64,000 nt of DNA from Eledone cirrhosa (Eukaryota), in the NCBI GenBank assembly GCA_964016885.1, contig OZ024759.1, positions 10,912,001 through 10,976,000 of the forward strand, read 5' to 3'. Shown here piece after piece: positions 37,801 through 40,800 of the stretch. The translations under genes and the position numbers were made by a program. The notes beneath the pieces are model-generated. The model was not told the DNA's origin. It did no database searches and saw only the letters and a list, made by a program, of their open reading frames with translations. How positions within the stretch are numbered: position 1 is the first letter of the stretch; the number at the start of each line of letters is the position of its first letter.

Positions 37801-40800
37801 CTTGTCGTCACATGGTACCATGGGCCCAGCACTATGTGTCAATAATTGTCACAAGTGTAGTGTTTGTACCAGAGTTTTCAAGTCGCTGGCTGGACTAAAA
37901 AGTCACTCGTTCAGCGCATCGGTAGGGGTTTTCCTATATGGATATAAAGTAGTGGCCGTACTCGAAAACGAGTTGGCAGCCACCATGTTTGTATGTATGT
38001 ATATATATGTGTATATATATATGTATATATAGATGTATATATAGATGTGTATATATATATATATATATATATTAATTCAAAATATTAACAAGATAGATAT
38101 TCTTGTGATCAAGTATATTTTATTATACATATTTCAGAGGTACTGAGTTAAGTTCTACAGTACGTCCTCATCAGGTAAAATAAGATGATGCATGACATAC
38201 ATGGTACTATGACTGAATCTTAACCATCTACTATGTCAGGGTATGTCATGCATCATCTTATTTTATCTGATGAGGACGTACTGTTGAACTTAACTCAGTA
38301 CCTCTGAAATATGTATAATAAAATATACTTGATCACAAGAATATCTATCTTGTTAATATTTTGAATTAATATATATATATATATATATATATATATATAT
38401 ATATATATATATATATATATAGAGAGAGAGAGAGAGAGAGAAAGAGAGAGAGAGAGAGAGAGAGAGAGAGAGAGAGAGAGAACACTGGAAGGTAGAGCAC
38501 TCAGTCTATGGGGCGAGTTTGGTAGAAGTGGTTACACAACAGTTAGTTCACCATACCAAGAACAATTGTTTCTCGGTATGGTGATCTAACTGTTGTGTTA
38601 CTACTTATATATATATATATATATATATCATCATCATCATCATTTTACGTCCGCTTTTCCCTGCTTGCAAGGGTGGGACGGGTCTTATTCAGCACAGCAT
38701 CTCTCCACTTGTCACGCTCCTTCGTCATCTCCACCGTGAGCTTCAATGATCTGAGGTCTGTTCTCACTAACTCCACCCACGTTTTTCGTGGTCTACCTCT
38801 ACCATGTCTTCCTTCAACTGGCATTTCCTGGCACTTCTTCACCCATTGGTCATCCTCCATGCGCATCACATGTCCATATATATATATATATGTATATATA
38901 TATTAATAAAAGGAATTCCAACTTTGTCTGATTTACTTGTTTTATTTACAATCCTTTAACATTTATAATGGTATTCGAATGAAATAGTATAGTAGAATAT
39001 TAAATGTCAAGTGTTTATTGAACAAGTACTTTCAAGCTTTCGCAATCTTCAGGTTCATATTGTGTGGTGACAGTCAAGTTTGCAATTTTCAACTGTTGAA
39101 AATTGCAAACTCGACTGTCACCACATATTATGAACCTGAAGATTGCGAAAGCATGAAAGTACTTGTTCAATTAACACTTGACATTTAATATTCTACTATA
39201 CTATTTCATTCGAATACCATTATACATTTTAAAGGATTGTAAATAAAACAAGTAAATCAGACAAAGTTGGAATTCCTTTTATTAATATAATCTTCTATAC
39301 ACAATCATACACACCCGTGTATATTTATCTCTCTCTCTCTCTCTATATATATATATATATAAATATATCATCATCATCATCATCATCATCAGGTTTAGCG
39401 TCCGTGTTCCACGCTTGCATGGGTTTGGACGGGGGTTTTCCCACTTGAGGCAAGAGTGGTTGTCTTGCTCGCATAGGACTGTCTGGCGTGTTTTCTACAG
39501 TTGGATGCCCTTCCTAACACCAACCACATTTACAGTGTGGGGCTGGGAGGTTTTTACCGTGTTGCCTACACGGCCACATTACAGCGTGGACTGTGTGTTT
39601 TTTTGTTGTGACACCTACACGATCTCATTTGTTTCGGCCTGGATGTTGTGGGACCAACATAACTGTACATTGAAAGGGGCGGTGTGGATGGGGTGGAGGT
39701 GGTGGGACGGGGGGGTGTTTTGATAGAGATGCCTACTGACTGTAGTAGGTTTTTACTTTGTATTTACTTTGTATTTACTTTGTATTTACTTTATATATAT
39801 GTATATAATATACTCACCCTATGGACTGAGTGCTCTCTCTCTCTCTCTCTCTATATATATATAAGGTATATATATATATATATATTAATATATATATATA
39901 TGTATGTATATATATATATATATATATATATATATATATATATATATATATATATATATATTGTTATACTTTGGGAGGGTCATGTTGCCAATAAGTTTTC
40001 AGATAAAGAATCTTGCTAAACAAATTCAGAAACGAAATATATATATATATATATATATATATATATATATATATAATTGTTTCTACTTTTGGCGCAAGGC
40101 CAGCAATTGTCCTTGTACATTACTGGTATTTTATTTTATCAACCCTGTAAGGATGAAAGGTAAAATTGACCTTGGTGGGATTTGAACTCAGACCATAAAG
40201 GGTTGTGACTCTCTCTCTATATATATATGTACTGGGTGTATTTTATCGTGACACCAGTACTACCACTTTACAGAGTGTACTGGGTGTATTTTATCATGAC
40301 ACCAGCACAACCACTTTACAGAGTGTACTGGGTGTATTTTATCATGACACCAGCACAACCACTTTACAGAGTGTACTGGGTGTATTTTATCATGACACCA
40401 GCACAACCACTTTACAGAGTGTACTGGGTGTATTTTATCATGACACCAGCACAACCACTTTACAGAGTGTACTGGGTGTATTTTATCATGACACCAGCAC
40501 AACCACTTTACAGAGTGTACTGGGTGTATTTTATCATGACACCAGCACAACCACTTTACAGAGTGTACTGGGTGTATTTTATCGTGACACCAGCACTACC
40601 ACTTTACAGAGTGTACTGGGTGTATTTTATCATGACACCAGCACTACCACTTTACAGAGTGTACTGGGTGTATTTTATCATGACACCAGCACAACCACTT
40701 TACAGAGTGTACTGGGTGTATTTTATCATGACACCAGCACTACCACTTTACAGAGTGTACTGGGTGTATTTTATCATGACACCAACACTACCACTTTACA

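Follow-up and report, generated by a model that had tools for sequence, protein, structure and literature searches.

Penelope-like elements (PLEs) with a C-terminal endonuclease include the Hydra clade, to which Penelope-13_HM and Hydra-1_Obim belong (Craig et al. 2021, PMC8557442). The supplement of that paper gives (TA)n as the target of nearly all Hydra families, and the clade combines insertion into (TA)n with a type-I hammerhead ribozyme near the 3' end and the protein motifs DKT, CxCX5C, CxxC and CxH, all of which we also find in the family described here. More widely, PLE insertions can carry head-to-head pLTRs with a shorter inverted copy and an optional tail at one end (PMC3846280; PMC8557442), and both papers state the origin of the inverted ends and one-sided tails as unresolved. 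Cleavage by the minimal type-I hammerheads published for metazoan PLEs is weak and does not take place in monomers; in Schistosoma, dual motifs lie on opposite strands at a distance of ~100-700 bp (Cervera and De la Peña 2014, PMC4209133). In an Anolis PLE studied in vitro, both DNA strands are nicked, reverse transcription starts at two internal sites that match the tail we describe below, a dimer is predicted, and the hammerhead is protein-assisted, cleaving only with the element's own protein (PMC11167929).

Against this background, we analysed a 64,000-nt stretch of the Eledone cirrhosa genome (hereafter the window), which contains a palindromic element at 38071..38370. The element very probably consists of two 5'-truncated, hammerhead-bearing pLTR copies of an abundant PLE with Hydra motifs, set head to head in a TA microsatellite, with both ribozymes predicted to be inactive within a hairpin; the two copies likely derive from one insertion event. 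The architecture is already published: inverted pLTRs, tails on one side and pairs of hammerheads on opposite strands, separated by 100-700 bp, have all been described. The element resembles Penelope-13_HM, which is listed with an inverted, 5'-truncated copy at its 5' end and with the same hammerhead on both strands (PMC8557442), and it shares with other inverted-pLTR insertions the head-to-head arrangement and the shorter inverted copy (PMC3846280; PMC8557442). It differs from the latter in being made of two pLTR stubs alone; and whereas the tail described there is optional and confined to one end, it is one-sided in the family here and missing from the window copy. Non-LTR retrozymes (bioRxiv 10.64898/2026.07.22.740005) are likewise non-coding, carry a type-I hammerhead and have a proposed PLE-pLTR origin, but they are head-to-tail repeats with a hammerhead in each unit, whereas the window element is head-to-head with one hammerhead per strand, and we rejected a retrozyme identity on the grounds of this arrangement. 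The features of the locus are as follows.

36015..36128, plus strand: upstream exon of an INPP5E-like host gene, matching residues 244-282 of PDB 2XSW
37992..38070, no strand: degenerate (TA)n target, left flank
38071..38200, minus strand: probable inverted 5'-truncated pLTR copy of a Hydra-clade PLE, 130 nt, without tail (from genome matches and arm pairing)
38116..38182, minus strand: type-I hammerhead of the left arm, mirror of the plus-strand motif, predicted cut after 38124
38201..38204, no strand: 4-nt junction filler; the junction around it has no second occurrence in the genome (from the junction search)
38205..38370, plus strand: direct 5'-truncated pLTR copy, 166 nt (from matches to long copies)
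38259..38325, plus strand: type-I hammerhead (from a descriptor scan, folding and the motif alignment)
38371..38481, no strand: (TA)n then (AG)n, right flank
40994..41128, plus strand: downstream exon of the INPP5E-like host gene, matching residues 283-327 of PDB 2XSW

When the arms (38071-38200 and 38241-38370) are compared with each other, 128 of 130 positions pair, the two mismatched pairs being 38156/38285 and 38175/38266 (a divergence of 1.5%), and TA runs bracket the element at 37992-38072 (degenerate) and 38369-38421, so that the near-perfect 130-bp inverted arms within (TA)n reported in a preliminary description of this DNA are borne out. The 40-nt spacer reported there has the right length but is not a separate part, as 38205-38240 belongs to the right-hand pLTR and the filler is confined to 38201-38204. 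We assign most of the spacer in this way because a genome search returned, next to palindromic relatives with other centres, many single arms matching positions 135-300 of the query. The right-hand copy starts ~2 nt past the A of an initiator-like TCACT motif, finishes at the proximal, tail-less 3' end and has 93-98% identity to the best-matching pLTR of each of five long copies of the family; the inverted arrangement is one of head-to-head 5'-truncated pLTR copies of 130 and 166 nt. The filler could alternatively be what is left of a full left arm after a deletion of ~30 nt. The window copy contains no coding part, no target-site duplication is readable at its flanks ((TA)n on the left, (TA)n(AG)n on the right), and a search near the element found no tail remnant. 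Immediately upstream lies a 116-nt direct repeat (91%; 37461-37576 and 37903-38018).

Both arms hold a hammerhead core. On the plus strand, an 8-bp stem I (38259-38266/38318-38325) encloses the core segments CUGAUGA (38267-38273) and GAAA (38306-38309), a stem II of 10 positions with one conserved C·C mismatch (38274-38305), and a self-complementary 8-nt stem III segment (38309-38316) followed by a predicted cut after 38317. The claim of one hammerhead per strand with an 8-bp stem I stands for the core on both strands and for the plus-strand stem, while the minus-strand stem I is reduced to 7 bp by a C·A mismatch at its core-adjacent pair (38175). When the whole window was shuffled 100 times with its dinucleotides preserved, the descriptor used (stem I of at least 8, stem II of at least 3) had no match, and an Rfam scan of 36000-40500 returned no hammerhead family among 51 matches at E<=10. 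A long helix II and a tiny palindromic helix III suited to dimers are shared with the minimal type-I hammerheads of metazoan PLEs (PMC4209133), where the pair G10.1-C11.1 is called highly conserved; here stem II opens with a G·U or A-U pair, and stem I has 8 bp. The motif is also unlike the hammerhead listed for Hydra-1_Obim in PMC8557442, and its long stem II with a conserved C·C mismatch is a further difference from the Hydra clade as published. The literature searched yielded no account of the hammerhead of this family, although Repbase or Dfam may hold one.

Several related features lie nearby. A second palindrome in the same intron (38899-39289; 391 bp, 96%, in TA, 530 bases from the element) carries a Hydra-style hammerhead of another family, with CUGAAGA at 39136 and a predicted cut after 39164, in a double-hammerhead arrangement with a palindromic stem III, and has a short one-sided extension at about 39285-39320. 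At 33535-33810, a minus-strand sister-family hammerhead (33584-33648), with stems I and III as in the element's family and a different stem II, is fused to an inverted tail; on the plus strand, 34174-34785 is a separate Hydra-like endonuclease remnant that follows this unit and gives a sub-threshold Pfam GIY-YIG match. Another 391-bp palindrome (98%), at 58311-58700, gave no match to the hammerhead descriptors used.

The element's family is abundant. A 23-mer ribozyme word has 5,907 exact matches in the genome (0 for the reversed control), and a wider descriptor with stem II left free has 14,403, which answers the question of copy number raised in the preliminary description. Family insertions sit in (TA)n with the hammerhead within the pLTR, and together with the TA runs flanking the window copy they confirm the proposed targeting of TA microsatellites. 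In long copies, the pLTR continues 5' via ~2 kb of UTR into an open reading frame (ORF) with RT and GIY-YIG parts; conversely, a same-strand family pLTR lies 3' of the ORF in 17 of 20 stretches taken around RT matches, most of which also have an inverted piece upstream of the ORF. The suggested origin from PLE pLTRs and the linkage to PLE ORFs are thereby upheld.

A frame of 750 residues in L126 contains DKT (residue 87), YRDD and YIGAT, has a frameshifted portion upstream, and finds 189 homologues at E<=0.001; a Pfam search with it returned no family. Two of the motif cysteines are changed in L126, but the CxCX5C linker and the motifs CxxC and CxH, which surround the conserved E and N, are all intact in 8 of 11 other natural copies read, CxH being altered in a ninth. 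The CCHH of other PLE endonucleases was not seen by eye in an alignment that included no canonical PLE. At the N-terminal position where the Hydra clade has RWK (PMC8557442), the family has RVRW(R/H) (RVRWH in L126, RVRWR in L129 and L143), and RWK, RWR, RWQ and RWM occur among the homologues. From end to end the element measures 4.0-4.7 kb in L126, L129 and L144, including a ~2-kb 3' UTR, whereas Hydra elements are generally shorter than 3 kb, which is a tendency and not a criterion (PMC8557442). The parent is, by its motifs, a putative Hydra-clade member: we name the clade from motifs that match its published description.

Some coding copies show further arrangements. L144 (G000:C3:174981000-174990900) is a head-to-tail tandem of elements with a period of 4,001 bp, in which a pLTR plus tail closes each unit and an inverted pLTR lies upstream. 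ORF linkers are asparagine-rich, and coding copies can have a kilobase-long inverted 3' UTR at their 5' end (L036:5760-7160, L126, L129). Beside a family stub in L030 (3232-5550), an unrelated RT frame of 773 residues with a sub-threshold Pfam RVT_1 match possibly belongs to another PLE clade. Contigs assembled from three sequencing runs (at most one sample) contained short family fragments only and none across the junction, and are uninformative either way.

We derived tail and length statistics from 83 stretches on contig C1 that hold the first 100 matches listed, requiring both arms of a head-to-head pair to be at least 60 nt; the first 20 palindromic loci, having been picked by similarity to the query, were left out of these counts and kept in those of alleles and substitutions. 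The family has two fixed 3' ends ~97 nt apart, a tail longer than the 30-40 nt described for PLEs (PMC8557442). In 25 of the 27 head-to-head pairs among these first matches exactly one arm has the tail, with one pair tailed on both arms and one on neither (binomial p 6e-6 against 0.5), and seven of seven sister-family pairs, picked as pairs and read by eye, are one-tailed as well. With no tail on either arm, a state found in 1 of 27 sampled pairs, the window copy is an atypical product of the family. Near their start, the tails of sister-family copies (L151, L153, L155, L157, L159, L160, L162, L163) contain, by eye, complementary ACTC...GAGT words that could pair as a stem-loop where the RT has its proximal start.

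The 5' ends of the arms are also not evenly spread: among the same first 100 matches, a length of 155-175 nt is reached by 33 of the 125 arms, compared with 9 at 134-154 and 7 at 176-196, and the boundary coincides with the TCACT initiator-like motif. Of 76 copies with a CACT site, 57 have TATAAA within 45 nt, and in 53 of these it lies 30-31 nt before TCACT; the box-bearing copies mostly represent one family, and the box is absent from the AAGC-type sister family. A TATA box with a TCACT initiator-like motif is likewise found in the Adineta Pen2a pLTR, from which the family differs in its TATA-to-TCACT spacing of ~30 nt, counted from the start of the box (PMC3846280). A hairpin starts near the TCACT boundary in four folded sister-family copies (-8.7 to -13.4 kcal/mol); in the element's own family it reaches -1.3 kcal/mol only, calculated from a shortened piece. 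Arm lengths also seem to accumulate near 440 nt, but we attribute this to breaks in the alignment, caused by an indel with respect to the reference copies, and gave it no weight.

The two arms of a locus resemble each other in detail. Over 55 pairs, 25 rare alleles are common to both arms, compared with 0.03 per random pair, a control that is unmatched for subfamily and a signal that inter-arm conversion would also give; in the window copy, both arms share a C found in 6 of 209 other arms. Arms of one locus differ by 2.7% on average (55 pairs), and we rejected the idea that these differences arose by editing of the template RNA, as A>G and T>C changes among family DNA copies show no strand bias (39 vs 54, p=0.41). 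In the palindromic copy L097:3007-3284, a 65-nt segment with the hammerhead core is repeated three times in tandem after the turn.

Taken as a whole and standing alone, a mechanism with two cDNAs has, in our judgement, an even chance of being right. The RT-endonuclease would nick both strands of the TA run, and two cDNAs would be primed from the same source RNA, normally one per internal start site; a tail on one arm only would follow because the two cDNAs normally start at two different internal sites. Where priming falls in the 5' pLTR, the cDNA would run off at the 5' end of the RNA near the initiator and yield arms of ~165 nt, other cDNAs would stop early, and the cDNA ends would be joined head to head with trimming and filler. 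In the window copy, both arms may have finished at the proximal site, or the tail may have been lost later between its TA-like borders. The parent would probably use its hammerhead as a dimer or with help from the protein, the window copy being a passenger.

A more specific version, which we entertain tentatively and at somewhat less than even chances, takes the stubs as a genome-wide record of how PLEs integrate: each insertion would combine two independently made cDNAs of a single sense RNA, and an RNA of ~265 nt from initiator to tail would be copied thousands of times in the manner of a SINE. One cDNA would come from each of the two fixed sites, run-off at TATA/TCACT would account for about one arm in four, and the ~265-nt RNA would comprise a 5' hairpin and the covarying hammerhead with its conserved C·C mismatch. 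If true, this reading argues against a model of self-priming on antisense RNA.

Self-priming, in which a single molecule folds back, possibly on antisense RNA, before one arm loses its tail to trimming by the endonuclease, appears rather unlikely to us, but several features speak for it. Rare alleles are common to both arms of a locus, some junctions contain filler or are nearly palindromic, self-priming, possibly on antisense RNA, is argued for in PMC3846280, and the tail is attributed to endonuclease resolution in PMC8557442. The fold-back of a tail-primed cDNA predicts, however, that the tailed arm is never the shorter one, whereas greater length is seen in arms of both kinds: L103, L112, L113, L114 and L119 have an untailed arm that far exceeds the tailed one, and in loci such as L096 and L109 its partner is a tail only. 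The 5' ends that pile up at a sense initiator-like site better fit a sense RNA. Random trimming of either arm would still be compatible with the data.

The preliminary description had also regarded the palindrome as a mobile fold-back unit. That the palindrome itself moves whole, as a non-autonomous MITE- or retrozyme-like unit, now seems highly improbable and is already largely refuted for the window copy, even though short double-arm forms (both arms 60-210 nt) are common, making up 17 of the 83 stretches around the first 100 matches listed on contig C1 by our own classification. The window junction has a single match in 3.0 Gb even with one mismatch allowed. Among the first 20 palindromic loci, two pairs have a common junction (L005/L008 and L012/L016), that of L005/L008 occurring six times in the genome as an exact 32-mer; a hot 5' boundary and microhomology explain such sharing, and slight secondary copying of other palindromes may occur. 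Arm lengths moreover vary continuously, with a bare tail at one extreme and several kilobases of coding element at the other. As far as sequence can tell, the palindrome is the product of each single insertion and not a mobile unit of its own, because the junction is unique and arm lengths are continuous; we rejected a MITE or fold-back identity on the junction counts (one match genome-wide, six for the other junction tested). Same-strand close neighbours are few among the first 100 matches listed. The copied unit could instead be the short initiator-to-tail RNA (~265 nt).

The ribozyme itself appears to be maintained in the parent. Across 22 sequences spanning the stem II families, 7 of 19 pairs have two-sided changes, six of them in stem II. 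The covariation score was reached by none of 500 shuffles, a control that ignores relatedness, and sliding the alignment lowered the paired fraction from 93% to 38-56%. The sequences were selected on the core and on stems I and III, so the constancy of these two stems is no evidence. Because stem II covaries across sister families, we consider the fold of the parent's ribozyme to be conserved and under selection. The stem covariation that the preliminary description looked for was found in these two-sided changes, and its minimal type-I hammerhead with a palindromic stem III is supported by both the descriptor scan and the covariation. Position 4 of stem II retains the C·C mismatch in 172 of 183 motifs (overlapping loci included) between neighbouring pairs that covary, and the mismatch is possibly a tertiary or protein contact. 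RNAalifold recovered stem II from the 22 sequences and paired the 5' strand of stem I with the stem III segment instead of forming stem I. A lower variation of the core (1.1%, compared with 3.7-4.1% in the flanks) was discounted, as many loci had been picked by a word overlapping it.

For the window copy, the predictions point to an inactive ribozyme. Transcribed from either strand, the antisense arm precedes the hammerhead arm; a single hairpin is predicted for the whole element (-208 and -204 kcal/mol for the two strands), the hammerhead-constrained ensemble is 91-92 kcal/mol worse, and in growing prefixes the core is predicted to be already paired as it emerges. The earlier statement that the element presents a hammerhead whichever strand is transcribed therefore holds for the letters only, given the order of the arms and the favoured hairpin. 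In the isolated 91-nt ribozyme, stem I was not predicted as the preferred fold (pair probability 0.12), two ribozyme copies cofolded without constraints did not adopt the double-hammerhead structure, and the self-duplex of the 8-nt stem III is weak at -2.2 kcal/mol. Because the window copy has one hammerhead only per strand, there is no dimer partner in cis. By these models, both ribozymes are predicted to stay inactive within the hairpin, and cleavage of host pre-mRNA by the element is unlikely.

That host is INPP5E-like. The exons on either side of the element match consecutive residues of PDB 2XSW, the 72-kDa inositol polyphosphate 5-phosphatase INPP5E, which ranks first for the downstream exon and fourth, after three synaptojanin-1 chains, for the upstream one; the placement in an INPP5E intron is borne out by these matches, and its number, 8, presumably fits human exon numbering. 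Co-option, whereby the hairpin or the ribozyme in the intron would act on the pre-mRNA of the host through cleavage, editing of double-stranded RNA or small RNAs, is the least probable reading and very remote: the element has the orientation of the host gene and is predicted to make a duplex of ~130 bp, with a second such palindrome 530 bases off in the same intron, but nothing marks selection, its arm divergence lies within the family range, and the family shows no A>G bias, a test that concerns DNA copies and not host RNA.

The locus is an ordinary one, with about a thousand similar stubs by rough extrapolation from the 17 of 83 stretches on one contig, and the part worth keeping is the statistics of the family rather than the window copy. 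The one-tail rule (25 of 27 pairs), the pile-up at TCACT and the fact that either arm can be the longer make this family test material that would separate a two-cDNA model from self-priming, and its sister families provide a natural covariation set for a hammerhead with a long stem II.
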